Shown here one piece after another: positions 5,899-64,000 of a DNA stretch of 64,000 nt. Source of the DNA: Escherichia coli. Its GTDB lineage: Bacteria; Pseudomonadota; Gammaproteobacteria; Enterobacterales; Enterobacteriaceae. The DNA is taken from the NCBI RefSeq assembly GCF_024223415.1, contig NZ_CP100500.1, one strand, 5' to 3'. The position numbers and the translations under genes are program-made. The notes below the pieces were generated by a model. The model did no database searches and had not been told where the DNA came from. It worked only from the letters and a program-made list of their open reading frames with translations. Position 1 is the stretch's first letter. Every line of letters begins with the position of its first letter.

Positions 5899-7311
5899 AT
5901 GACGCGTTATCAACATCTGGCAACTCTGCTTGCCGAGCGGATTGAGCAAGGGCTGTATCGTCACGGGGAGAAATTGCCGTCGGTGCGCAGCTTAAGTCAG
6001 GAGCACGGCGTCAGCATCAGCACCGTGCAGCAGGCGTATCAGACGCTGGAGACGATGAAGCTCATCACTCCGCAGCCGCGTTCGGGGTATTTTGTCGCAC
6101 AACGTAAAGCCCAGCCGCCAGTGCCGCCGATGACGCGTCCGGTGCAGCGCCCGGTGGAAATTACCCAGTGGGATCAGGTACTGGATATGCTGGAGGCGCA
6201 TAGCGACAGTTCCATTGTTCCGTTAAGCAAAAGCACGCCGGATGTCGAAACGCCCAGCCTGAAACCACTCTGGCGGGAGCTAAGCCGGGTGGTACAGCAT
6301 AATCTGCAAACCGTTCTCGGTTATGACTTGCTAGCCGGTCAGCGGGTATTGCGCGAGCAGGTTGCCCGCCTGATGCTCGACAGCGGCTCGGTGGTCACCG
6401 CCGATGACATCATTATCACCAGCGGCTGCCATAACTCGATGTCGCTGGCGTTAATGGCGGTGTGTAAACCGGGCGATATTGTCGCGGTCGAATCCCCCTG
6501 TTATTACGGTTCGATGCAGATGCTGCGCGGCATGGGTGTGAAAGTGATTGAAATCCCAACCGATCCAGAAACTGGCATCAGCGTTGAAGCGCTGGAACTG
6601 GCGCTGGAACAGTGGCCGATTAAAGGCATCATTCTGGTGCCAAACTGTAATAATCCGCTGGGATTTATTATGCCGGACGCGCGCAAACGGGCCGTTCTCT
6701 CTCTCGCTCAGCGTCATGATATTGTGATTTTTGAAGATGATGTCTACGGCGAACTGGCAACGGAGTATCCGCGCCCGCGGACCATTCATTCCTGGGATAT
6801 CGACGGGCGAGTGCTGTTGTGCAGCTCGTTCAGTAAAAGTATTGCTCCAGGCCTGCGGGTGGGTTGGGTCGCACCGGGGCGCTATCACGATAAACTGCTG
6901 CATATGAAATACGCCATCAGCAGCTTTAATGTACCGTCCACGCAAATGGCGGCGGCAACGTTTGTGCTGGAAGGTCACTATCATCGCCATATCCGGCGGA
7001 TGCGGCAGATCTATCAGCGCAATTTGGCGCTTTATACCTGCTGGATACGGGAATATTTTCCCTGCGAAATCTGTATTACGCGCCCGAAAGGCGGATTTTT
7101 ACTGTGGATCGAATTGCCTGAACAGGTCGATATGGTCTGCGTCGCGCGGCAGCTATACCGCATGAAAATCCAGGTGGCGGCAGGCTCGATTTTCTCGGCT
7201 TCCGGCAAATACCGTAATTGTCTACGTATCAACTGCGCTTTGCCGCTCAACGAAACCTATCGCGAAGCACTGAAGCAAATTGGCGAGGCCGTGTATCGGG
7301 CAATGGAATAA
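5899..7311 (+). CDS. yjiR: MocR-type transcriptional regulator (GntR HTH fused to aminotransferase-like domain)
   Basis: 470-aa ORF; N-terminal GntR-type HTH (LPSVRSLSQEHGVSISTVQQAY) and class I aminotransferase-like C-terminal domain. Confidence 0.9.
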   Translation: MTRYQHLATLLAERIEQGLYRHGEKLPSVRSLSQEHGVSISTVQQAYQTLETMKLITPQPRSGYFVAQRKAQPPVPPMTRPVQRPVEITQWDQVLDMLEAHSDSSIVPLSKSTPDVETPSLKPLWRELSRVVQHNLQTVLGYDLLAGQRVLREQVARLMLDSGSVVTADDIIITSGCHNSMSLALMAVCKPGDIVAVESPCYYGSMQMLRGMGVKVIEIPTDPETGISVEALELALEQWPIKGIILVPNCNNPLGFIMPDARKRAVLSLAQRHDIVIFEDDVYGELATEYPRPRTIHSWDIDGRVLLCSSFSKSIAPGLRVGWVAPGRYHDKLLHMKYAISSFNVPSTQMAAATFVLEGHYHRHIRRMRQIYQRNLALYTCWIREYFPCEICITRPKGGFLLWIELPEQVDMVCVARQLYRMKIQVAAGSIFSASGKYRNCLRINCALPLNETYREALKQIGEAVYRAME

Positions 7312-7427
7312 ATTCGAATTAGTGGCGAAGCACCTGATTTATTCTCACGAATCGCCTGTGACTCGTTTTATCTTTGCAGGATCATAGCCACGTTCCGGCA
7401 TGGCTTAGTAAAGTGCGCTTCGTTCAT

Positions 7428-7526
7428 GCCGGATGCGGCGTGAACGCCTTATCCGGCTTACAAATCGCGCAAATTCAATAGATTGCAGAGGTAATGTAGG
7501 TCTGATAAGCGTAGCACATCAGGCAG
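7428..7526. repeat. BIME: two REP elements (GCCGGATGCGGCGTGAACGCCTTATCCGGC... and TGTAGGTCTGATAAGCGTAGCACATCAGGCA)
   Basis: Canonical enterobacterial REP consensus recognisable by eye between convergent yjiR and rpnD. Confidence 0.6.
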
Positions 7527-7551
7527 CTTTGCGTTTGTCATCAGTCTCTGA

Positions 7552-8496
7552 TTAGTACTCGATCCATGGATCGCGCTTGCTTTCAGGCAAGGGTTGCTCT
7601 AATGCCTGCATTTGCTCTGCCGAAAGTCCAGTATATCGTTGTATCCATTCAGGATCCGCACCGTTCTGCAAAAGCAATCTAAGGAGGCGTTGTTCCCCTT
7701 CTTCTTTCCCCTTTTCCATCCCTAACAGCCATCCATCATTATGAATTCGCTCTGCAATCGTCATTATTCGCTCCCTGTGTTGTGGCATTCGACTGGTTAG
7801 TTCGCTGATAAACTCTTTAAAACTCGCTTCATCGCCAGCCAGTAAAATGTAATTTAACAGCGCGGTTATCTGGCTGTCATTAGCGCACCCTGTAACCAGT
7901 AATACTGCCAGTTGATCAATAAGCCCCATTAGATCGCGCTGGCGAATATGCTTTTGGATCAACTCCAACAGGGCGACTCTGCGGTGCTGCACAATCTCGT
8001 CGTCTGGCACGACAGTGATATCCACCAGCGGGAACGCGGCATTATAAAGTTTCCGTGCGGTAGTCGGGTCGGCAAATTCGTCCAGCCAGCACAGGGACCA
8101 GGGGTAAGGACTACGGCTACCGTGATAAAACAGCATCGGGATGACCAGCGGTAGCTGCCGGCGTTTATCATGCTCGATATGGCGCTGCATCACCGCCATG
8201 GAATAGCGCATCAGGCGAAAGGCCATATGAATATCCTCACGGCTCTGATGTTCAATCACCACATAAATATAGCCATCGCCTTCGCGGGTCTTTACCGACC
8301 ACAGAATATCGGAATGTAGCGCCCGCAATTTTTCATCGACAAAGCTGGCGGATTCCAGTTTTAAGCTGTCGAGATCGCACAGTTCCCGTAAATCTTTAGG
8401 TAAGTGGATCTCCATAAAATCCCGCGCGGTGTCAGGGTGCATGAGAAAGGATTTAAATAATGCGTCATGCGGCGTGCTGGTCGTGAAGTTTGTCAT
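7552..8496 (-). CDS. rpnD: Rpn-family recombination-promoting nuclease (YhgA-like), intact 314 aa
   Basis: 314-aa ORF with YhgA-like N-terminal nuclease region ([23 protein letters not shown]); position corresponds to K-12 yjiP/yjiQ. Confidence 0.8.
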
Positions 8497-8962
8497 GGCG
8501 ATCCGTCACCTGTAGATAAGATGGCCCGACTGTAGCGACTAACAAAACCATTCTCACCCGGCAATTTCTCGTTCCCCGAGGTGCTTTCCAGGCTATTTTT
8601 ATTCTTCTGCAAACGATACATTTTTCCGGAAACAGGCTCGCGTTTTACATGTCCTGTACCCGGCAGATATTCCCCTTTCCACCGCGCTCTTTTGATTAAC
8701 CGCAAATTTTAATTACACTTAAGGTGTATATTTTCTATGCAACCCATCAATTAAAGAGGTGTAATGTGCTGATGACTATTTGTAATCGTTATACATTCTG
8801 ACCTGGAGTCAGAAGGTATTTCTCTGTCTGTGTGTTCACAGGCAGTGTGGTTGATTACATGAAATTCAGTACATTTGTCCTTCTCGCCTACCTTTCGTCA
8901 TTACCGACGGTATTGAATTTCGTTTTCCCCGTTGGGGTTCTCCGGACAAGGAGTTGTTTGTT

Positions 8963-49790: not shown

Positions 49791-50742
49791 ATGCCATGAC
49801 CGCGCCTACCAGCGGAGCGATACGGCGTGAGGCAACAAAAGCGGCGTCAGAGATCAGCTTTAAGTTCGCGTTCCAGTTTATCGTGACAGAAATGATAGTG
49901 CTGGGAAACACGGCGTCACCGGGGACTATCCCGAAACGACTGGAGCATCTGCGGGGGCTCTGGAAGTGGTGTTCATAACAAAACGCCCCCGACCATCAAG
50001 GGCGAGGGCGGTTAAGATATCAAAAACCCGTTATCCTGTGAAACACAGTGCCGCCCCGATTAAGTGAACGGCATTGTGTTTCTGAGGGACCTTAATTTTC
50101 CCTGATTCTCTGACGTTCCTTACCATTGATATTTCCTTCATTCCTCACCAGAGAAATAAAAAATCACTATACTCATCAAAATATGAGATTACCTTTATTC
50201 AGGTGATCACCTTACTATTTTTTACGGAAAATAAATTATGAATAACAAGAAATCACTGACAAACCACCTGTAAAATGTCAATCATTTTAGTTCAATTGCC
50301 TTTGTCATGATTATCTTTTTATCGTCCTGACGATACTATTAACAATTGCAATTTTTATACCCCTCCTGAACAAATAGAAAAGAACTAATATATTCGTTTA
50401 TAATTCTGGTAATCCTGGCATCATACGTTTAAAACTTAAGATATTTATTTTATCATCATCATGGTTCCAGAGACTATTGGTCAGCTGGAAATGCCAGCCT
50501 TTTCGTGCCAGCTATATTTGTCCAGTGTGTCACCCCATCCAAAAATCATCCACATCCTGACGTTACGTTAGATATAGAGAAAACAGGTTGTACTGTGCAA
50601 TATGCAAACCGCATAAGCGAATATAATTTCTAAGTTGATATTGTCTGGCTGTTGGGAGCTAAGCAATATAAATATCGCCAGTTGCCAGAACGGTTATATA
50701 GACCAGGAGCGTTTCGGCTCCTGGCCTGTTTTGGACATATTA

Positions 50743-52857
50743 TCAGTCAGCCACTAATAGCGGACTAGGGACACCAGATGATGAAACAAACAGCCCTTTT
50801 ACGGCACGGGTTGCAGCCACATGCAGTAACGCGCGCTCATTAAATAATGCATCACGCTGTTCAACGGGATCATCGGATGCTAATGCTTTTATTTCCGGCA
50901 CAACGCCTTCGTTAATCCCCACCAGGAACACATACTGGAACTCAAGCCCTTTAATACGGTGCATCGTTGCAACCCGCACGCCAGGGCGTGCATCGCTGTC
51001 ACCGCTATCATTGCCTAAATTAAATGTCTCAATTCCGGCGTCATTCAGTGCTGATGCGTAGCGGTCACAAGCATGTTTAGTACGCGCAGTAATGCAGATA
51101 TCCTGAGAACGAACCTGATTCGCCAGCAATGCCTGAATTTGCTTGACGAGCGTTGCAGCCTCTTCTTTGAAATCTGCCGCATGCGTAATCATGGGCTTTT
51201 CCCCGTGCAGTAATGACAAATAATCATTACTGGTATCCGCTTCGCCATCGAGGTTATCAACCTTCACACCAGTTAACAGCCCAACAGCAAATTGACGCGT
51301 CTCTTCTGTGGTCCGATAGTTAATCTTCAATTTTTTACTGCGACGACCACGGACGTTAATACCACACTGACCAAGAACGACCTTATTGCGATAAATACGC
51401 TGATGCCCATCCCCGACAATAAACAGATCGTTGGGCGACTCGGGAACCAGGCTGCGAATAAGAGTAAATGCCGGGGCACCGATATCTTGAGCTTCATCGA
51501 CCACAATACTGCTATAAGGTAGTTGGACCTGCTTTTCTTTAAACAGAACAATAGCCTCATGCATGGCATCGCCCATTTCGCGCAGTTTGGCACGCGCCAT
51601 TTGTGCTCTGAATTCTTCAAAGACTGGCCAGATTTTCGCCCGTTGAATACGGGATAACGCTGTACCACGTCCAACCCGGCTGACTTTGAGGTATTCCTCC
51701 CGGGTGTAAACCGCATTTGGCTGGACAACGCGTTGCCACTCTTCAGCATAGAAATTATCAGGTAGCCCCAGTTCGGCAGGTGCCTGCTGCAAGGCATAGT
51801 TCCAGCATTTGCGTCGCCCTTCATCGCTGTCGTATACCACGCGGAAATCATAACCGTGGCGTTTTAGTTGGTCGCTCATCCAGGCATCAATGTTAACGAC
51901 GTCAATACGCGCCATCTCTTCTCGCGTACACAACCGCTGGAGATTAGCGCGAATATCTGCCGCCAGGTTACGCGTAAAGGTCGTGAAAAGTACCTTCTTA
52001 CCGGGTTTATCTGCCAGACGCTGAGATAACCACCGCGCACGGTGCATCGCAACAACCGTTTTCCCTGTACCTGCACCGCCCAGTACTCGTACCGGACCAT
52101 TAGCGGGCGACTCCACCAGTTTTCGCTGGCTCGGATGCAGAAATACACGCCATTTTTCTAAAGGCGCATTAAGCATCTGCAACAGCTCCTGTTCATTTTC
52201 AACGACATGGAAGCGACGTTTACTTCGTTCAATCGCCTCCATAAAGTCGTTGGTATCAACAGGCTCATCACGATGATCGTTAAACTCTTCCAGCACTTCC
52301 TGGTAATCCAGCCCTTCTGCCAGCCAGTGCAGAGGTTCCCAGGCTTCTGCTGGCATTATGCTTTCAAGTTGGTTAAGCCCGGCTTCATCGGTAAGCGCCA
52401 TCACCTGATCAATAAAGACAGGCGGCACGCCCAGGGCCAGAATCTGTTCCGCGCTGTAAGCCGCGAAGAGTTTCGGTTTATCAACCACCGCTTCCGGTGC
52501 CGGTTTGATATAGCTAATATCAATAACCTGAATCGCGCCGGTAACTGGGTGAATCGAACAATCATGCCGCCGCGCCCAGTCGTATGCTTCGTCGTGTTTA
52601 TCCACCCACATCAGCATATACAGGGCACCCTGTTCAGGTTTCAGAACAATGCCGCGATAAGTTTGATCGATTCGCACCGAATGGACATTTTTACTGCGCG
52701 CATCGTGGATCTTTTCATAGTTAAGTCCATTACTGGTCGGGTCCTGACGGAATTTGGAGATGAATTCCTGCACCTTTTTTTGCTGTGCTTTTGGGATCCG
52801 CGCGAATGCGCCCAGAAAACCATCAGAAAGTGCCACCTTGGGCGTTTGCACCGTCAT
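50743..52857 (-). CDS. UvrD/Rep-like SF1 helicase (704 aa) with about 250-aa N-terminal domain of unknown function; third gene of candidate defence operon
   Basis: Walker A LGGAGTGKT (aa 259-267), Walker B/motif II VVDEAQD, C-terminal motif MHRIKGLEFQYVFLV typical of UvrD/PcrA family; ATG overlaps upstream gene stop (ATGA at 52854-52857). Confidence 0.85.
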   Translation of the reverse strand: MTVQTPKVALSDGFLGAFARIPKAQQKKVQEFISKFRQDPTSNGLNYEKIHDARSKNVHSVRIDQTYRGIVLKPEQGALYMLMWVDKHDEAYDWARRHDCSIHPVTGAIQVIDISYIKPAPEAVVDKPKLFAAYSAEQILALGVPPVFIDQVMALTDEAGLNQLESIMPAEAWEPLHWLAEGLDYQEVLEEFNDHRDEPVDTNDFMEAIERSKRRFHVVENEQELLQMLNAPLEKWRVFLHPSQRKLVESPANGPVRVLGGAGTGKTVVAMHRARWLSQRLADKPGKKVLFTTFTRNLAADIRANLQRLCTREEMARIDVVNIDAWMSDQLKRHGYDFRVVYDSDEGRRKCWNYALQQAPAELGLPDNFYAEEWQRVVQPNAVYTREEYLKVSRVGRGTALSRIQRAKIWPVFEEFRAQMARAKLREMGDAMHEAIVLFKEKQVQLPYSSIVVDEAQDIGAPAFTLIRSLVPESPNDLFIVGDGHQRIYRNKVVLGQCGINVRGRRSKKLKINYRTTEETRQFAVGLLTGVKVDNLDGEADTSNDYLSLLHGEKPMITHAADFKEEAATLVKQIQALLANQVRSQDICITARTKHACDRYASALNDAGIETFNLGNDSGDSDARPGVRVATMHRIKGLEFQYVFLVGINEGVVPEIKALASDDPVEQRDALFNERALLHVAATRAVKGLFVSSSGVPSPLLVAD

Positions 52858-55800
52858 TTGTCACCTCCGGACAGATGTTGCAATGTATTTTCGTCAATTG
52901 GCCCGAATGCAACGTGCCAACCTCTGGTTGTGAATAATGGAATAAATTCTTGATTATCAATAATCAATGCCCATTTTTGTGATGGCCAGGCGAGATCGGC
53001 TTCCGCAATAATTTCACCTTCATCATTTTGCAATTCGTAGCCGAGAGTCGGCGCAGAGAGAGAATGAGACTGAAGCAACGCGATCTCTTCAGCGCTTAAT
53101 AAGCCAAACTCAATAATCTCAGCCCAACTCTCATCAGTCTCTGGTACTGCCTCTGGCGTTGCCGAAACTTTAGTGTCAACGCTTTCCTGCGGTAAATGCA
53201 CGGCTTTACGGCTGGTAAAGGTCATATCCGGCAGGAACTGTAACAGGTTTACCAGTCGCCAGAAGCCATTGAGTCCCGCTTCATAACCGTCATCCTGCGT
53301 ATAGCGATCGTCAAAACAGATATGCAAACGCAGCCAGCTGCGCATTTGTGCGACGCTGGTCGTCGGTTTAATGGCTTGTTGTGGCAACACCGAAGCCAGC
53401 TCAATAAATTGCTGCGATGAGTTACAGCTATCGAGTAAACCACCAAAGACAAACGGTTCGTCTGGCAAAAGCTCTGCTAGCCGCCAGGCTGGCGCGTTTT
53501 CCTGCATTTCATAGGCATACTTTTGTTTCGTTCCCGCGTCCTGTGACTTCTTCACATCCAACCACACCCAGGCATGTGCAGCAGCCATTCTCTGCCATAA
53601 CTGCGTTCTTCCGCCCGGATCGGCGAGATAATCCAGCAGCAGTGCAAAACTGTTGCGTTCCCGGAACGACGCTTCAAGGGCCGCAAAGTTGGTATCGTGA
53701 AACAGGTTATAAAACTTAGGCTGTTTCATATCCGGGTTATGCCCAAGTCCCAGGACATCCTGAACATGTTTAAGCCCAGGCTCTTTGAGATCGGCCCACG
53801 TGACTGTCCACACCCAGAAATTACCGCTATCCCGAATCGCCTGGCGTTTTTGCACATCCTCTGCGACGCTATTTTTGTGGAACGCAAAGCCATCAAGGAA
53901 AATAGCCACCGGTTTAATGACATCAGACTGCATAAGCGGATATAGCACGTAATCCGGGCGACAAGGGATCCCCACCGCCTCTTTAGCGCCTAAATCCACC
54001 TGAGCTTTAAGATGCCAGCTCATCATCGGTTCGCTGCGGGTGTTAATAATCCACCCAGCGCCCTGATGCGCGTAACTGCGACTGACAATCAGGTTTTTAT
54101 TTTCTTGCAGGCAGCTAATAAACCGTTTTTCCAGCTCACTGCCCATCATGGCTTCGAGGGAAATGTTTTTGATGGAATCAATTACCCGTATCGAATCTCT
54201 TGCCTGCAAAATTTTCGCCAGCAAGAGACGCGCCTGATCGCGGGAGACATACTTCATGCGCCCACGGTCACGGTAAGCGTAAACGCAACGATAACAACCA
54301 TCTTTATGCGTATCATTGTTGCAACTGCATTCCACTATTGCCTGATAGGCCAGTTCAAGTAATTTCAGCAAATTGTCGGGAGTGCGCATCAGCTCTTTAA
54401 GAGAACCAGTTCCCCCCGGGACGGTATCGTAAATCACCAGATACTGCCTCCAGGATTCGCCTTCATTTTCCGGCTCGCGGTACACAACGCCTTTCAGGTG
54501 ATCGACATTCCCCTTGAAGTAATGTTTAAGGCCGAGCTGGATCGCCGCCCCAAGAGAAGCCTCCACGACACGGTCATTACTGTAACTGCTTACCGGGAGC
54601 AGAATACGCAACGCTTCTGACTCCAGCTGGCGATAGAGATAGAGATAATCTTCGAACTTCGCCTTTTCCGGTTCCGTGCGATATTTGCAGCTCAAATCAT
54701 GACGTGGTTCATGATCGCGAGGACGCTGCACCATGCCGCACCCGAGGCAAACTTTAAACCCGGTTCGCTTCTTCGCTTCTCCGGCAATCATCAACTCATT
54801 GGCATCATCCGCCATTTTGCCGAAGTTGATATCCCGCAGGGTGACTTTGCTTAAAAATTCAAAACCAAACGGAACTTCGCCTTCCTCAATCGCGTATGCC
54901 GCCGATACATCTTCTTTTTCGAAACTAACCAATAGCTGACGCTGGAAGAAAGCAGGTTCACGGCTGTCGCTATCGTCGCTGATCTGGCTATCACGTGCGC
55001 TGGCGCGGGCATAAACCTGGCGAAGTTTCAGCAGCGTGGTTTTTTGTCCGGCATCGGCCCACCCCGGTGTGCCACATTTCGGGCAATATTTATGCTGGTC
55101 GCCCGTCTGGTCGATATTTTCGCTGTAGTTACAGTGGCTACAGATACGCCAGTTCTCCGGCTCAGAGACCTTCAGGTCTATCTGCTCAATTTCAACTTTA
55201 TGCCCACCGGCATAGAAATTATTCAGCGGAGCCAGCTCAGCCAGCGCCGTTGATGCCGGGCGTTCATATTCGAAAGTGGTGTTTTGATATTCACGCGCTT
55301 CCCCGCCTTCTTTACGCCGCCAGAGCACAGAACGTAACGTAATACCGGCTTCCGGGAAGGCGTAGTTAGGCAGCAGACCTTCATCCGTGAGGAAATTCAG
55401 CGTTTGCTTATTGTTGATTTGATTGACCAGCGCCATCAGCGCCTGCCGTTCTGAAGTCAGTTCGCGCATATCGCTGTCAAAGTTTTGATCGCGCGGCGCG
55501 TTCTCCAGTTTATCGATGCTGCGCTTGAGTTTATCGATGCGTGAGCGCAAAGATTTGCGATCTTCCACCAGCAGTTTTAACGCTTCTTCGATACGCTGCA
55601 CCAGCGAACGTTGCCCTGGCGCGCCCTGAAGATAAGACAACAGCTGTTGGCGAGTTTCTGCGGCAAGATCGGGGAAGATCGCCGTAAATTGTGCAGCAAT
55701 CTCCGCATGATGCTGTTCGATATATCGCAGTAAGTTATACGGAAAACCCGATTTACGCCCGAACTCCAGCTCATCCAGCATCTGTTTGACGTTTTTACAG

Positions 55801-58800
55801 ATAGCGGATTCTGGTACACCGGTTTTCACCCAGTTATCCATACAAAAAGCTGCCAGCTGGCGTTCGAGAATAGCCGTTGCATTGAGGAAGACGCCAGGAG
55901 CCTGCACCTGGCCCTGCATCATCTCCAGCGGTTCTTCAAAGAAAAACTGATCGTGCGGGTTCCCTTCTGCCACGGTAATGTTTAACGCGTTACCATCTTT
56001 ACGACCGGCGCGACCAATACGCTGCAAGTAGTTGGCCTGAGCAGGTGGGACAGAACAGAGTAAAACGGTGGAAAGATCGCCAACGTCAATACCCATCTCC
56101 AGCGTCGGTGTTGCCGACAACAGGTTGATATTCCACGGTTGGTTGCCGCGGTAGAACGATTTTTCGGTGGCTTCGCGATCTTCACGGCTAAGCAGCCCCG
56201 TGTGTTCTGCGCCCTGTACGCGCGCGATGTCCATGTTCTCCCAACGCCAGGTCGCCGTATTGTCGACTTCCTGGTAACGACCTTCACAACGTAAAGAGAG
56301 ACAAGGCGCATTACGCCACTGCCAGCCTTGATCGGCCGGAGCCCGGACAACCTCACGGCAACATGAACAATTAAGCTGAACGACGTCACGGCTCACCACC
56401 AGCGCCGAAGGCACCAGTCCCCAGGCTTCACGCCCTTTGGTGTCAAAATCTTTTACTACTCCGGCTATTTTCAACGCCGTAAACAGGCGTCGTAACACTG
56501 TTTCCGCAACGCTACTGATAAACAGATTATTGCCGTTACTCAGCGTGCGATTGATCCAATGCTGATACCAACTGGGGTTAGACTTCGCGCCAATCAGGCG
56601 ATGGAAACCATTAATTTTTTCAAACGACGCATAAGCCGGTTTACGCGTTTTCGGACCGATAGAAGGCATATAGCGCGAGGTACGCTCTTTTTGCGTCATC
56701 ATAAAGGTCGTGCCATCACGGCGATAACTTTCGAACGCCGGATGCATAACGGCCCCGGCCTGGCGTTGATACCAGATAACCCCCAGCGCCAGGTGCGCGA
56801 CCTGCTCGACGCTCACACCGGACATCTCATCACCCAGCTCTTCACAAAGCTGTTGATGCAGGGCGGTAATTGCCGGATTAAAGCGTTCTTTATCCACTCC
56901 GGCAACGGCATAACCGGTGGCTTCCAGCGTACGTCCGATACGCGCGCGCAGGGTGAATTCGCTGTACACCTCCCAGTCGAGGCGCAGGGAAACCAGCTCC
57001 GGCAGATCGGAGTTCTCCGCCAGTTTGCCTTCATTTTTCAGCATCTGATAATCATTCAGCCACTGCATATTTGGTGCGATGAAGTTCGCTGCAAAATGAG
57101 CATCGTCCGGTGAACGTTCACGCGTTTGTTGGCAAACACGCGCCGCGAACGCATCCAGCGGTAATGTCTCTTTTTCGCCAAGAACACTGGCGATTTGCCC
57201 ACGAATCATCAGCGGCCAGGTACGGGCAGTAAAGAAGCTGGCACGATGCGCGGCGTCTTGTACCGAGTCAGAAAACGTAATCAGCTTTTTATGTTCGTTG
57301 AACTGGCTGCCATAAAGCTGGTGAATCATCACCGCCGACAAACTGGCAGCCCGTGACCCCAGGATCGAAATCCCCTGTTTGCTGTTGCAGTACGGGCATT
57401 CATTAGCAAACTCCAGCTCGTCCTTACGCTCTTTGAGCATATCCGGGATCAGTACCTGCAACAGTTCCGTATGACCGCAATGTCCACACTGGACGCTGGA
57501 CTGTCGGTTCAGTTTCAGACAGGTAGGACACAGTTTCTGGTGTGCGCCACTGACCGCTTTTTCGTTGTTATCCGGGAAAGCAAGGACGATGGAGCGTCCT
57601 TTTTCAAAGAACTGGCGATAAATGCCGTCGAGGTCTGTTTCCAGCTGAACGCTTTGCCCATGACGCAGGCTGGCCCAGCCAGTTGCGTGGCAGTCACGGC
57701 AGTGGATAACCGGCAAATAGTGTTCGCGATCTTCCACCGCCACATCATCGGCAAACACCAGTCGGGGCGTTTTCGCCACGCTGGCGACCAGACGACGCAT
57801 CTCACGAAGCCACAACTGGGAGCGCAGTTGCACAAACGGCAGCACCGGACGCGCTTTCTTCGCCTGGAGACGTTTTTGCCGATCGTGTTCCGTTTCCGGT
57901 ACTTCGAGACGTGCCTGTGCGATCAGCGCCAGAATGCTTTGCAGCACGCGTCGGGCATGGTCGGCGCTTTCTGCCAGCATGACCTGGAGATTTTCCAGAC
58001 ACTCTCGTTCAGAGAGGATCCCGCCTTGCAGATCATGGAGTAAGACATGCATCACGCTGTGGCGGCGTAACAGTGACCCCAGCGCAATACGCTTTTCACG
58101 CCCGTCGTCGCTCTCCAGATCGTCCGGGAGTTGCAAGTCGCTGTCGGGGAACCACAAAGGGATTTGCCCGTTAAGATACGCTACCGGGGTAGCGTAACTC
58201 TGCGGGTCCAGGGCCGAAGCGACCTCCGGCCCCGGATACTGACTGTACGCAATGGCGTAATCCTGCAAGTACTCCGCTGCCGTGTAGCGATCTTCGCGAA
58301 TAACGGCGTCATCGGTAAACGGCTGGTCAAAGATTGTTTTTGCGTAATCGAGCAGTTGCCCCAGCTCGTCGCCGACGGTAGCTGATGTCCCGACGCAGGC
58401 GAATCGTTGGTTATCTACACCTATGTGATGCTTCAGACGTCGCACCAGACAGGCCAGATCCGACCCTTGCGCGCCATCAAACGTATGCAATTCATCCACG
58501 ACCAGGTAACGCAATGAACCGGGCTGGTTGTAACGCCAGAGCGGCTGATCGCCAGGGCGCATCAGCAGGTAGTCGAGCATTTTGTAGTTGGTCAACAGGA
58601 TGTCCGGCGGGCTTTCGCGCAGCGTGTGCTTGCAGGTAATGACCTTTTCTGCCGACATTTTTTTGCTGGGTTCGATTTCGCTGTCGCCGACAAACAGGCC
58701 GACGGTCACCTTGCCATGCAGTTGTGTATCGCTGGCGATGGTTTTGGCGAAACGGCTGGCCTGATCGGTTGCCAGGGCGTTCATCGGGTAGATGATAATC

Positions 58801-59195
58801 GCTTTAACCCCGGCTTGTGACGCGCCCGCGCAGTGGTTGAGCAGCGGGAACATAAAGCATTCTGTTTTACCGGAGCCGGTACCGGTAGCAACCAGCGTCG
58901 GCTGTGGCGCGTCGCTTCCCAGACGCTGAAATGCCCGGGCCTGATGCGCGTGCGGCGGGAACGGCAGCGTCAGATTAGGGAAGAAATTCAGCGGTAAGTC
59001 ACTTTTACGAAACGGCAACTGGGCGGAAAGGTATGGTCCTTTCAGCAGCGTTTCGGGCTGGGCCAGAAATTGCTCCAGCATTGAGACATTATCGTTATTC
59101 TCACCGTTAAACAGCGGACTGTTTAGCGGGAACGCCGCCCGTAAAAAGGCGGCAACGCTGTCGGCGACCTGCCGACTGACAACGGATGGCAGCAT
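52854..59195 (-). CDS. Giant multidomain SF2 (DExH, Lhr-like) helicase, 2113 aa, with zinc-ribbon/Cys clusters (DUF1998-like) and C-terminal Vsr/DUF559-like endonuclease motif; second gene of candidate defence operon
   Basis: Motif I ATGTGSGKT (58863-58883), Ia YPMNALATDQ, II VVDELH (58485-58496), V LEMGIDVGD and VI QRIGRAGR about 800 aa later; Cys clusters CSHCN...CPKCG and CSC...DGCYRC; FLDGFAFH...RQAIRDSG near aa 1740-1800 (about 53796-53978); start codon overlaps stop of upstream gene. Confidence 0.85.
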   Translation of the reverse strand: MLPSVVSRQVADSVAAFLRAAFPLNSPLFNGENNDNVSMLEQFLAQPETLLKGPYLSAQLPFRKSDLPLNFFPNLTLPFPPHAHQARAFQRLGSDAPQPTLVATGTGSGKTECFMFPLLNHCAGASQAGVKAIIIYPMNALATDQASRFAKTIASDTQLHGKVTVGLFVGDSEIEPSKKMSAEKVITCKHTLRESPPDILLTNYKMLDYLLMRPGDQPLWRYNQPGSLRYLVVDELHTFDGAQGSDLACLVRRLKHHIGVDNQRFACVGTSATVGDELGQLLDYAKTIFDQPFTDDAVIREDRYTAAEYLQDYAIAYSQYPGPEVASALDPQSYATPVAYLNGQIPLWFPDSDLQLPDDLESDDGREKRIALGSLLRRHSVMHVLLHDLQGGILSERECLENLQVMLAESADHARRVLQSILALIAQARLEVPETEHDRQKRLQAKKARPVLPFVQLRSQLWLREMRRLVASVAKTPRLVFADDVAVEDREHYLPVIHCRDCHATGWASLRHGQSVQLETDLDGIYRQFFEKGRSIVLAFPDNNEKAVSGAHQKLCPTCLKLNRQSSVQCGHCGHTELLQVLIPDMLKERKDELEFANECPYCNSKQGISILGSRAASLSAVMIHQLYGSQFNEHKKLITFSDSVQDAAHRASFFTARTWPLMIRGQIASVLGEKETLPLDAFAARVCQQTRERSPDDAHFAANFIAPNMQWLNDYQMLKNEGKLAENSDLPELVSLRLDWEVYSEFTLRARIGRTLEATGYAVAGVDKERFNPAITALHQQLCEELGDEMSGVSVEQVAHLALGVIWYQRQAGAVMHPAFESYRRDGTTFMMTQKERTSRYMPSIGPKTRKPAYASFEKINGFHRLIGAKSNPSWYQHWINRTLSNGNNLFISSVAETVLRRLFTALKIAGVVKDFDTKGREAWGLVPSALVVSRDVVQLNCSCCREVVRAPADQGWQWRNAPCLSLRCEGRYQEVDNTATWRWENMDIARVQGAEHTGLLSREDREATEKSFYRGNQPWNINLLSATPTLEMGIDVGDLSTVLLCSVPPAQANYLQRIGRAGRKDGNALNITVAEGNPHDQFFFEEPLEMMQGQVQAPGVFLNATAILERQLAAFCMDNWVKTGVPESAICKNVKQMLDELEFGRKSGFPYNLLRYIEQHHAEIAAQFTAIFPDLAAETRQQLLSYLQGAPGQRSLVQRIEEALKLLVEDRKSLRSRIDKLKRSIDKLENAPRDQNFDSDMRELTSERQALMALVNQINNKQTLNFLTDEGLLPNYAFPEAGITLRSVLWRRKEGGEAREYQNTTFEYERPASTALAELAPLNNFYAGGHKVEIEQIDLKVSEPENWRICSHCNYSENIDQTGDQHKYCPKCGTPGWADAGQKTTLLKLRQVYARASARDSQISDDSDSREPAFFQRQLLVSFEKEDVSAAYAIEEGEVPFGFEFLSKVTLRDINFGKMADDANELMIAGEAKKRTGFKVCLGCGMVQRPRDHEPRHDLSCKYRTEPEKAKFEDYLYLYRQLESEALRILLPVSSYSNDRVVEASLGAAIQLGLKHYFKGNVDHLKGVVYREPENEGESWRQYLVIYDTVPGGTGSLKELMRTPDNLLKLLELAYQAIVECSCNNDTHKDGCYRCVYAYRDRGRMKYVSRDQARLLLAKILQARDSIRVIDSIKNISLEAMMGSELEKRFISCLQENKNLIVSRSYAHQGAGWIINTRSEPMMSWHLKAQVDLGAKEAVGIPCRPDYVLYPLMQSDVIKPVAIFLDGFAFHKNSVAEDVQKRQAIRDSGNFWVWTVTWADLKEPGLKHVQDVLGLGHNPDMKQPKFYNLFHDTNFAALEASFRERNSFALLLDYLADPGGRTQLWQRMAAAHAWVWLDVKKSQDAGTKQKYAYEMQENAPAWRLAELLPDEPFVFGGLLDSCNSSQQFIELASVLPQQAIKPTTSVAQMRSWLRLHICFDDRYTQDDGYEAGLNGFWRLVNLLQFLPDMTFTSRKAVHLPQESVDTKVSATPEAVPETDESWAEIIEFGLLSAEEIALLQSHSLSAPTLGYELQNDEGEIIAEADLAWPSQKWALIIDNQEFIPLFTTRGWHVAFGPIDENTLQHLSGGDK

Positions 59196-62100
59196 CAGGC
59201 GTTCTCCTTATCTTGTGCAAAGAACGCCCAGGCCACTTTGTAGTCGTCTTCGCGATCTGGCTTGATAAACGGAGCCTGCCAGGTGACGGTGCGGCGCTCG
59301 CCTTCGTCGCTGCGGGTATAGTCATCAAAGGTGACGCTGACGGTACCGGTTTTCAGATGTTTGACATCATCCCAGCCGATGGCTTGATCGGTGCAGTCAC
59401 CGCCGGTCCACTCCGGGCTGTCGACGTTAAAGACAAAGCTGTTTTTCAGATCAGCTTTACGGGCGGTACGCGGCAGACCGACGCCCACCAGCCCTTTGCT
59501 TGGGGTAAAGATGATGCGGCCGTTTTGGTCGTACCAGGTGTCCGCTTCGTACTGGCGCATCACCGGGAACTGTACACGGTAAATGGTAAGCAGCTCTTCG
59601 AGAGTTAACCCCAGCGCCTGTGCCACCAGCACGTCGATTTCCACCAGCGCCTGACGACGACTGTAGTCGGAGCGTAAGGCGCAGTTACGCTGCCACTCTG
59701 GGGTCAGATTGGTGAAGAAATCTTGTGGCAGCAGCGGGAGATCGCGGCTCCAACGCTGGGTGTTGAAGTCTGGGGTGTAGCAGGATTGCCAGAGATCGGC
59801 GTAATCTTTCGTTAACACATTCAAAGCTAATGCTCTTGAGTTTGCACTCATTAGCTCAACATAAGGGAAGCCACGCAATGTTGATTCATAAACATCCGCC
59901 CGTCCTGTTGTTTTCAAATAAAAATCAGCCACTATTGAATGGCAAAATGCAGAGAAACTTAGCAGGTTTATTGGCTCTCTAAATGTTGTTGAGAGTACAG
60001 GGTGTATATGAGCAACGTGCTTTGGAACTATGCTGGATATCATCGAGCGTTCTGATGATGCCCCAAACATTCTCCGATTAACAAAACGATAATAATCCGT
60101 CACCTTCCTCGGCTCGTCTTCATCCTGCTCTTTCCACGAAACCCGTGGGGTGCGCTTTGCATACTCCTGTGCATCACATGCCGGAATGTAGTTAGTTCGC
60201 GGCAGGTAATCGTCGGGCAGGGTTAATAAATCAAGGCAATCATAATGGCTATTTGCCTCACAGAGAGCTCTTGGTGTCTTATTGAAAGGATTACCCACGA
60301 AGAAATGGGGACCAGACAATACCCATTGAGAAGCATCTTTTGGATACATTGTTTTACGCTCGATAGTGCCATCAATTTGCTGATTTGTTTCATGCCACAT
60401 TTCCAGAGAAAAATACTGGCCTTGCAAATCGCCTAATCGCTTCGGCTGATTGGCAAATTTTTCCAATACCGCGACAAGTTGCTCTGCGTGCAAAGCGGGA
60501 AGACGAGCCTGTAATGCTGGCGTGTCGGGTTCATCATACAAACGAGCAAATAAAGCTAGCTGCTCTTTCGTGACACGAATAAGCCTGGATTTATGACCTT
60601 TAGTATTCCATCGGCTATAGTAAACATCTTTTATATAACCTTCTTCCTTAATGCCACCAACCAATCCATCACCTGAATGCTCAAAACTCTCATCAAGAGT
60701 TGAAGGAATAAAAAGATTATTAATATTAATAAACTCCACGTCGTTCGATTTGGTCATAGAGTAAACATGTGTCCCAAATTTCATTCGACCGTGATCATTT
60801 GTTCCAACAAATAGAGAAAACTCATTTTGATATTGGCAATGTAGACGTAACCTTGGATAGATCTCTTCTCTGAAGAGCCCTCCCTTAGGATCGTCATATA
60901 CCCCCTCTGGGTGAACAAATCCTGCCACGCCTTTCTCTGCCCCCAGACGCCAGGCCTGAGGCAGGAAGCATTTATACAAGTTGGTCTGCACCCCGCGCAG
61001 TACCGGGTAGTTTTGCTGCGCATTGAGGAAGTTTTGCATCCCTTCACAGCCTTCATACTCGCTGCGCCAGGCCGCTTCCAGCGCCGGGATCTGGTTAAAG
61101 GTATCAATACGCAACGTTGCCAGCTTCGATGCACTCAGCTTACGCAGCACAAATTCCGGCTCGTAATCACCCAGCACGCCCGCTTCCTGCCATTCCACTT
61201 TCAGCCACGGCGGGTTTCCGAGCATCAGGTCAAAACCGCCGCGCTCGGCAAACAGGTCGCAGAACTCCAGATCCCAGTGGAAGAAACGGTGCTGCTTTCT
61301 CAGGGCATCGACAATCGCCAGACGCGGCAAATGGCGGAACAGCACATCGGTTTTCAGACGACCAGCAACGGAAAACAGCGAAGACTCTTCTCGCAGCAGG
61401 CCTTCTTCGGCAAACAGATCGCCAGTAGTGCGCTCCGCAACTTCAGTGACTTTTTCCGTAATCACAATCCCGTCGAGCAGGGTTTCAATCTCAAACAACC
61501 AGGTACCGCGATCCGGTAACTCATCGGCTTTGTCGATCGGCCAGAACCACAGCGCGCACCAGTAGTCCATCACCCAACGCAGCTTCTGGTAGGCGCTGTT
61601 ATCTTCAAGACGACCGCTAAAGGTTTCATCTTTACTGCTCAGCGAAGAACGCGTCTGCTCGCTGTTTTCTGCCGGCCACACCGGGTAGCTGTCGGCGGTT
61701 TTCAGACGTTCTGCTTTAAGTTGCTGGCGATAGGTGTTCCACAGTGCTTCCACCTTTTCGCTGATACGCTGCACATCAGCAATCTCATGCCCGGCAAAGC
61801 TTTTAATAAACTCTTTGCGCCAGCTGTCCAGCGCTTTGAAGTCATCCGGATAACGCTGCTTAACAGTTTTATCGCTGTAGTTAGCCATACCGCCGTCGGG
61901 CAGCAGGAAGTGGAAAATCTGCGTCTCTTCACGCGGCGTGTTCATCGCCAGTTCGACCGGCTCGCTGTTAAGCCAGCTAGGATCTTTGGCTTTTTTGTAG
62001 GTCAGTTCGCTCTTGTTGAACACCTGACGGCGCGCGCCCACCAGCGAGTTACCGCAGTGCAGCTGGTAACCAAACCACGGTACAAAGGCATCGCCACTGA

Positions 62101-64000: not shown

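Follow-up and report, generated by a model that had tools for sequence, protein, structure and literature searches.

An ARMADA Type II operon of Escherichia coli and the variable blocks of its methyltransferase ArmB

Gene content and domains of the operon

A 64,000-nucleotide (nt) stretch of Escherichia coli DNA (NCBI RefSeq assembly GCF_024223415.1, contig NZ_CP100500.1; the whole stretch is called the window below) ends in three adjoining minus-strand genes, which very probably represent armB, armC and armD of the ARMADA Type II system, with the fourth gene, armA, lying just outside the window and with a mechanism that would be based on methylation. The locus is already known. ARMADA, short for disARM-related Antiviral Defense Array, is the subject of two preprints of September 2025, one by Bell et al. 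(PMC12458937) and the other by Li et al. (10.1101/2025.09.22.677730), in which ARMADA Type II (armABCD) was named and experimentally validated. A first-pass annotation made from the letters of the window had proposed an uncharacterised anti-phage defence operon of a methyltransferase, large helicases and a nuclease; it was right in kind, as the operon is ARMADA II, but "uncharacterised" does not hold for a system that has been named and shown to be protective in E. coli.

The three open reading frames occupy 50743-52857 (704 amino acids, aa), 52854-59195 (2113 aa) and 59195 to the window end (at least 1601 aa). At the armB/armC junction, TGATG (59197 to 59193), stop and start codons share one nucleotide (base 59195) and a Shine-Dalgarno sequence, AAGGAG, is located 9 nt upstream; at the armC/armD junction, ATGA (52857 to 52854), the genes overlap by 4 nt and are preceded by GGAGGTG. 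Inspection of the frames and junctions thus confirmed the coupled minus-strand genes and both overlaps of the first-pass annotation. That annotation was also right that the first gene runs off the window, since no in-frame stop occurs from 63967 to 64000, while its GTG start, giving 1590 aa, was a mechanical frame start; the protein has 1643 aa in E. coli NCTC10444. According to the annotated NCTC10444 locus and the window, the spacing along armA-armB-armC-armD is 2 nt, -1 nt and -4 nt, and armA lies directly upstream of armB, 2 nt from its start and beyond window position 64000. The operon therefore has four genes instead of the three first proposed, and further components do exist upstream, as had been anticipated. 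The genes armB, armC and armD are intact over 13 kilobases (kb), without premature stops. The features of the three genes are listed below by window position.

50743..52857, minus strand: armD, UvrD-like superfamily 1 (SF1) helicase, 704 aa, 99.7% identical to O157:H7 ArmD
50779..52137, minus strand: ArmD SF1 helicase core, with Walker A K266 (52060-52062) and D454 (Pfam, residue alignment)
52519..52857, minus strand: ArmD RelE/ParE-fold domain, aa 1-113 (AlphaFold2 and Foldseek)
52854..59195, minus strand: armC, YprA-family DExH helicase-nuclease, 2113 aa, 99.6% identical to O157:H7 ArmC
52965..53132, minus strand: small C-terminal domain of ArmC, aa 2022-2077, homologous to the Zorya II ZorE C-terminus (PADLOC ZorE2, 5.9e-9)
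53781..54098, minus strand: Vsr/DUF559-like PD-(D/E)xK nuclease core of ArmC, aa ~1700-1805 (D1748, D1768, H1773, D1780, R1784)
54282..54551, minus strand: MZB/DUF1998 zinc-binding domain of ArmC, aa 1549-1638 (Pfam MZB, 7.3e-13)
55998..56219, minus strand: Helicase_C (RecA2) motif region of ArmC, aa 993-1066 (Pfam, distant match)
58362..58946, minus strand: RecA1/DEAD domain of ArmC, aa 84-278 (Pfam DEAD, 2.5e-22)
58494-58496, minus strand: ArmC DELH D234 (D234N abolishes defence in the published orthologue)
58866-58868, minus strand: ArmC Walker A K110 (K110A abolishes defence in the published orthologue)
59195..64000, minus strand: armB, PglX/DrmMI-like N6-adenine DNA methyltransferase, full protein 1643 aa, first 42 codons past the window end
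61205..61216, minus strand: ArmB catalytic NPPW, aa 971-974 (defence of the NCTC 12900 orthologue is lost with N971A)
62312..62314, minus strand: ArmB G605 in the S-adenosylmethionine (SAM)-binding motif I, EPAMGSAAF (same residue mutated by Bell et al.)

ArmB was matched over nearly its full length by the PADLOC model REase_MTase_IIG (PDLC03614, 4e-289) and also by DrmMI (4e-57), while its matches to PglX models were weak (E 8.5e-6 in PADLOC; 5.5e-7 in NCBIfam, far below the cut-off). Pfam, run on the protein in halves, gave weak Eco57I, MmeI_Mtase and N6_Mtase matches and detected no nuclease domain in aa 1-546. In the NCBIfam search of the operon proteins, no model reached its cut-off. About 365 residues (aa 606-970) separate G605 in motif I from the NPPW of motif IV, and to our knowledge this spacing is far shorter in ordinary γ-class N6-adenine methyltransferases; for this reason, a large domain appears to be inserted within the ArmB methyltransferase fold, between G605 and NPPW.

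ArmC matched DruE3 (1e-104 to 4.6e-104) and DruE1 (1e-97 to 8e-97) in PADLOC, both partially, and gave weak DrmA matches. An insertion of ~700 aa precedes Helicase_C, with CxxC motifs at 499, 556, 570, 600 and 943; in the definition of ARMADA II, the insertions between RecA1 and RecA2 of ArmC comprise a BrxA-like domain, a β-barrel zinc module and a MarR-like domain. Nine CxxC motifs are present in the whole protein, which confirms its zinc clusters. Pfam detected no Vsr/DUF559 domain on ArmC, and homologues of its C-terminus were collected by an exhaustive representative search after a word-index search had returned five matches; in the homologue alignment, the Vsr-core signature RPD...DGxxxH...D...R is invariant or nearly so. 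The earlier description of this product as a DExH helicase with zinc clusters and a Vsr/DUF559-like motif is borne out by the Pfam domains, the CxxC motifs and the conserved signature. The small C-terminal domain (aa 2022-2077) shows 40% identity over 57 aa to the ZorE encoded in the same island (BLASTP, E 2e-8), and a domain common to the co-localised ArmC and ZorE could bear on cooperation of both systems.

ArmD is UvrD-like, as first annotated, according to its Pfam UvrD-helicase (4.8e-23) and UvrD_C domains, and it matches GajB in PADLOC (2.5e-36). Pfam detected no RelE domain on ArmD. Sequence searches of the PDB with ArmC 1641-2113, ArmD 1-235 and full ArmB returned nothing usable, and structure prediction with fold search was used instead. 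The AlphaFold2 model of ArmD aa 1-235, built with 50 homologues, has a predicted local distance difference test score of 94.3, and the top Foldseek PDB matches of residues ~1-113 are RelE, YoeB, YafQ and the RelE domain of Cami1 (target template-modelling score ~0.7, probability 1.0).

Assignment to ARMADA Type II and activity of this copy

ArmC and ArmD of the window are 99.6% and 99.7% identical to the proteins of O157:H7 strain 493/89, used here as the reference for O157 (its RefSeq protein ids for ArmB and ArmD are also those of EDL933). For ArmB, overall identity is 90.4%, with ~99% (99.3%) outside its variable region. The eight positions at which Bell et al. introduced mutations are all in register: K136 and D236 of ArmA, G605 and N971 of ArmB, K110 and D234 of ArmC, and K266 and D454 of ArmD. 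Because ArmC and ArmD are nearly identical to the O157:H7 proteins and the mutated residues fall at identical positions, this is the same system and not a mere relative. The genes follow the strict ARMADA II order of a BrxHII/DrmD-like SNF2 helicase, a PglX-like methyltransferase, a YprA-like helicase and a GajB-like helicase, where the intact ArmA of O157:H7, an SNF2 helicase, matches DrmD (2e-99) and is also BrxHII-like. Their domain composition agrees with the published definition as well, namely DrmD/BrxHII for ArmA, DrmMI- and PglX-like for ArmB, DEAD, Helicase_C, MZB and Vsr-like for ArmC, and GajB-like with a RelE fold for ArmD. As that definition also specifies, the YprA-family helicase and the DUF1998 module of ArmC are fused in one polypeptide, which carries a C-terminal Vsr-type PD-(D/E)xK nuclease that is predicted to be active. 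The arrangement zorA2B2E / druH-druE / armA-armB-armC-armD is common to NCTC10444, O157:H7 493/89, EDL933 and ATCC 8739.

Previous studies have demonstrated phage resistance for the orthologues in E. coli NCTC 12900, ATCC 8739 and EDL933, which ARMADA protects (PMC12458937; 10.1101/2025.09.22.677730). The operon cloned from NCTC 12900 gave non-abortive protection against 13 of 80 phages, and the ATCC 8739 system protected against 30 phages and acted in synergy with the adjacent Druantia III (PMC12458937); genes z5899-z5902 on O-island 172 of EDL933 are the same protective system (10.1101/2025.09.22.677730). The published orthologues act directly rather than by abortive infection and block many siphoviruses, T5-like phages, some podoviruses and Vequintavirinae (PMC12458937, 10.1101/2025.09.22.677730), while hypermodified T-even phages escape ARMADA (10.1101/2025.09.22.677730). 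All four genes are required, as any single deletion abolishes protection; defence was lost with ArmA K136A/D236N, ArmC K110A/D234N, ArmD K266A and ArmB N971A, and only partly lost with ArmD D454N and ArmB G605A (PMC12458937). The NPPW and Walker A mutants suggested in the first-pass annotation have thus already been made by others and abolish defence (PMC12458937). That annotation had named, as an outcome contrary to its own proposal, an instance of a characterised system with all canonical partners, and this is essentially what the locus proved to be.

The annotation had further placed the operon near DISARM and Druantia but in neither, and membership tests for both failed. A variant Druantia, with the 2113-aa helicase as its DruE, would explain why DruE3 and DruE1 are the best PADLOC matches of ArmC and why ArmC is nearest to the Druantia helicases in the published YprA tree (PMC12458937), but we consider it extremely unlikely: the DruE3 match amounts to 348 bits in two stretches versus 2185 bits over the full length of the true DruE 8 kb upstream, ArmC is accompanied by an SNF2 helicase, a methyltransferase and a UvrD helicase instead of by DruH, DruA-D or DruM/F/G, and the C-terminal nuclease is Vsr-like whereas DruE3 has a tandem PLD. 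Membership in Druantia type III was rejected on the partial DruE3 match, on the missing tandem PLD and because DruH belongs to the adjacent druHE pair. A class 1 DISARM with fused or missing parts is very unlikely too, in spite of the matches of ArmA to DrmD (2e-99) and of ArmB to DrmMI (4e-57) and of the weak DrmA matches and DUF1998, the DrmB signature, on ArmC. Here helicase and DUF1998 share a single polypeptide rather than DUF1998 residing in a separate DrmB, the operon contains an extra RelE-UvrD gene beyond the DISARM set, the ArmC helicase groups with Druantia and not with DrmA (PMC12458937), and the authors of the family define ARMADA as separate from DISARM; with no separate DrmB gene and no DrmC PLD nuclease in the operon or the 46-kb locus, membership was rejected.

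ArmB could also be taken for a Type IIG restriction-modification enzyme that acts alone, with unrelated helicases as neighbours, given that PDLC03614 covers it almost end to end (4e-289), that DefenseFinder lists a type IIG restriction-modification system in O157:H7 (10.1101/2025.09.22.677730) and that Type IIG and IIL enzymes typically show variation resembling that of target-recognition domains, as ArmB does. Such an arrangement is hardly credible, as Pfam found no nuclease domain in aa 1-546, translation of the genes is coupled at both window junctions, the four-gene order is conserved across phyla, and ArmB does not restrict by itself, defence being abolished when armA, armC or armD is deleted (PMC12458937; 10.1101/2025.09.22.677730). 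BREX was rejected because the annotation of the 46 kb surrounding the operon lists neither PglZ nor BrxC and the PglX matches are weak, and Gabija because the locus has no GajA-like gene. The initial remark that the operon lacks a PLD-type DrmC, PglZ or BrxC and Druantia partners was confirmed for the operon and the 46-kb locus.

The sole live rival to ARMADA Type II as a working defence concerns activity in this strain and not the identity of the system: the copy might be a decaying, non-functional one, in which an armA frameshift at codon ~200 leaves intact armB, armC and armD that no longer defend. We regard this as possible but rather unlikely. The closest genome is that of NCTC10444, with 11 substitutions and no indels over the 30-kb overlap (window 34000-64000 versus locus 16001-46001). 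Its armA, annotated in RefSeq as a frameshifted DEAD/DEAH helicase of the 952-aa class (13015-15872 of the extracted locus), reads CC at nt ~600 where O157:H7 has CCC, with truncation between Walker A and Walker B, and this weighs against an active system; the gene is intact in O157:H7, EDL933 and ATCC 8739. As single-gene deletions each abolish protection (PMC12458937) and armA is frameshifted, the NCTC10444 copy may be inactive, and probably is if the 1-base-pair (bp) deletion is real, the alternative being a long-read error. Broken components are found in other strains as well, such as E. coli MB20, where armC is annotated as frameshifted (5920-9489 of the extracted locus). NCTC10444 was presumably assembled from PacBio reads, in which single-base homopolymer deletions are a common error, and this speaks against inactivity, as do the wholly intact armB, armC and armD of the window. 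Exact identity of the window with the NCTC10444 record was rejected on the 11 substitutions in 30 kb; the window would come from a very close relative or another version of that strain, in which armA, lying outside the window, may or may not carry the frameshift. The frameshifted armA of NCTC10444 and the broken armC of MB20 indicate that presence of the island is no guarantee of an active system, and inactive copies matter for predicting the phage susceptibility of strains related to enterohaemorrhagic E. coli.

Variable blocks of ArmB and a possible mechanism

Comparison of 11 E. coli ArmB alleles showed that the protein is conserved at 0.97-1.00 everywhere except in two hypervariable blocks, B1 and B2, which are separated by a better-conserved scaffold.

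60482..60844, minus strand: ArmB block B1, aa ~1095-1215, putative target-recognition module (mean pairwise identity 0.33-0.52)
59747..60091, minus strand: ArmB block B2, aa ~1346-1460, putative second target-recognition module (mean pairwise identity 0.17-0.59)

Between the window and O157 proteins, 168 of the 176 differences fall inside aa ~1000-1500, and in its variable region the window allele shares ~64% identity with that of O157 and ~65% with that of ATCC 8739; block B1 of the window has at most 49% identity to the ten other alleles. The two blocks reassort independently. ES7 combines B1 of ATCC 8739 (100%) with B2 of PK8566 (100%), Res13 and MB20 have B1 in common (99%) and differ in B2 (28%), and the same holds for O157 and CREC_5 (B1 96%, B2 49%). 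The constant region of the MB20 protein is the most divergent of the allele set (~97%). Across 526 E. coli carrier genomes the spectrum of alleles is wide, and the window allele occurs at 99% identity or more in just one of them, NCTC10444. Li et al. likewise reported armB as the variable gene of the island (10.1101/2025.09.22.677730). The two-block variability as a handle on specificity is new here and is discussed in neither Bell et al. nor Li et al. A literature search for a published O157:H7 methylome that names a motif dependent on ArmB found nothing relevant.

In Type I, Type IIG and BREX PglX enzymes, target-recognition domains typically undergo modular shuffling and follow just after the catalytic motif. 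The location of B1 and B2 and their pattern of variation suggest that they constitute a modular target-recognition domain of ArmB. On a further reading, to which we give an even chance, ArmB would be a programmable specificity subunit, whose exchangeable B1 and B2 together set the N6-methyladenine motif that marks self, so that discrimination would operate, as in BREX and Type IIG/IIL systems, through sequence-specific methylation and not through DNA structure alone. The confinement of variability to two shuffled blocks downstream of NPPW, the wide spectrum of alleles and the escape of T-even phages support sequence-specific methylation as the self mark.

In the mechanism that we propose, ArmB would N6-methylate adenines in a short motif read by the B1/B2 region, and host DNA would thereby be marked as self. 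ArmA, as a translocase, and ArmC would then engage unmarked phage DNA that is incoming or replicating; ArmC, a YprA-type helicase, may grip single-stranded DNA with its OB-CON-DUF1998 canopy, and its Vsr-like PD-(D/E)xK domain would cut the engaged unmarked DNA. ArmD, with its UvrD-like helicase and RelE fold, may assist processing and be only partly required in the native host. No growth defect was reported for ΔarmB strains (PMC12458937; 10.1101/2025.09.22.677730). As restriction depends on the methyltransferase, whose loss is not lethal, the logic would be closest to that of BREX or DISARM and not to that of classical restriction-modification.

Several observations weigh against a methylation-based mechanism of this kind. 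The assignment of B1 and B2 to target recognition draws on where they lie and how they vary, and a methylation motif, a nuclease activity and a DNA substrate for ARMADA are absent from both Bell et al. and Li et al. The word "methylation" is never used in the main text of Bell et al. (PMC12458937), whose ArmB SAM-motif mutant G605A still defends in part (PMC12458937), and Li et al. anticipate that ArmC senses the structure of DNA and not its sequence (10.1101/2025.09.22.677730). If the proposal of a programmable ArmB is true, natural shuffling of B1 and B2 would diversify ARMADA in E. coli into many "immunotypes", and the combination in the window would be a rare one that had not been sampled before; the two reassorting blocks offer a concrete handle on self/non-self discrimination by ARMADA.

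Island context and comparison with known systems

The 14-kb stretch is carried over at least 80% of its length by ~521 of 5426 complete E. coli genomes, O157:H7 included, and the island was previously reported from 426 E. coli genomes (10.1101/2025.09.22.677730). In NCTC10444, the divergent genes zorE-zorB2-zorA2 are followed by a gene of the STY4851/ECs_5259 family with a 2104-aa helicase gene, and then by armA-armB-armC-armD; the pair upstream of armA is a textbook DruH3/DruE3 (PADLOC 2552 and 2185 bits). After armD come an insertion sequence (IS) remnant, a truncated nanS, and then nanM, nanC and fimB. Past zorE (99-1202 of a separately extracted locus) lie a short internal nanM fragment (1426-1674) and a gene annotated as a phosphorothioated-DNA-binding restriction endonuclease (1742-2614), and farther out CP4-type "moron" genes, namely CbtA/YeeU, RadC, antirestriction and DUF932 genes. 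The nanM fragment past zorE suggests that the nan locus received the defence block by insertion, and together with the CP4-type genes it agrees with delivery of the island by a mobile element (Bell et al., PMC12458937).

One feature beyond the operon was recorded on its downstream side.

50703..50724, no strand assigned: possible operon terminator, a GC-rich hairpin formed by a perfect 8-bp palindrome ~20 nt past the armD stop (scored on the plus strand only, function predicted)

The AT-rich spacer between this hairpin and the IS remnant contains 10 promoter-like matches versus 3.1 expected. The first-pass annotation had called the locus variable and had placed yjhR here in K-12; both points stand. 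The K-12 gene yjhR (15016-16032 of the extracted K-12 locus) adjoins nanS at a comparable place without being a homologue of ArmD. As a candidate armD remnant it was rejected (BLASTP E = 1.2), and what it derives from is another helicase gene and not the arm operon.

Distant ArmC homologues retain an ArmD partner. A distant ARMADA-II-like locus (GCA_030252245.1, CP126972.1, 1-18625) has an extra gene for a 1662-aa SACS/NOV_C protein between the methyltransferase and the ArmC-like helicase, and adjoins an integrase, AlpA and primase module. We also identified an ArmC-like and ArmD-like pair in the JGI metagenome 3300076002 (8842-18613), located right after a VapBC pair and without an adjacent armA or armB, which may represent a methyltransferase-less variant.

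Among the known systems, the ARMADA II of NCTC 12900, EDL933 and ATCC 8739 has the same gene order, island, domain architecture and tested residues as the window, and differs in that the ArmB variable region of the window is only ~64-65% identical and armA is frameshifted in the nearest genome. Class 1 DISARM (DrmD, DrmMI, DrmA, DrmB, DrmC) resembles the operon in its SNF2 helicase, its large N6-adenine methyltransferase, a helicase with DUF1998 and a presumed methylation-based discrimination of self from non-self. Unlike DISARM, ARMADA fuses the DrmA and DrmB parts in one protein with large zinc-rich insertions, and its nuclease is Vsr-like and fused to the helicase, whereas that of DISARM is the separate PLD protein DrmC.

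Druantia type III, which is co-transcribed in the same direction and for which synergy has been reported, likewise possesses a giant YprA-family helicase-nuclease of the same clade, while ARMADA II lacks DruH and has a methyltransferase and two extra helicases. BREX type 1 also relies on a large γ-class methyltransferase that is needed for modification and defence and whose deletion is not toxic; the specificity of its PglX resides in a C-terminal variable target-recognition domain, and a BrxHII-like helicase is optional. ARMADA differs from it by the absence of PglZ, BrxC, BrxA, BrxB and BrxL and by a recognisable nuclease. Finally, the SF1/UvrD core of ArmD matches GajB of Gabija, whereas the N-terminal RelE fold of ArmD has no equivalent in GajB.

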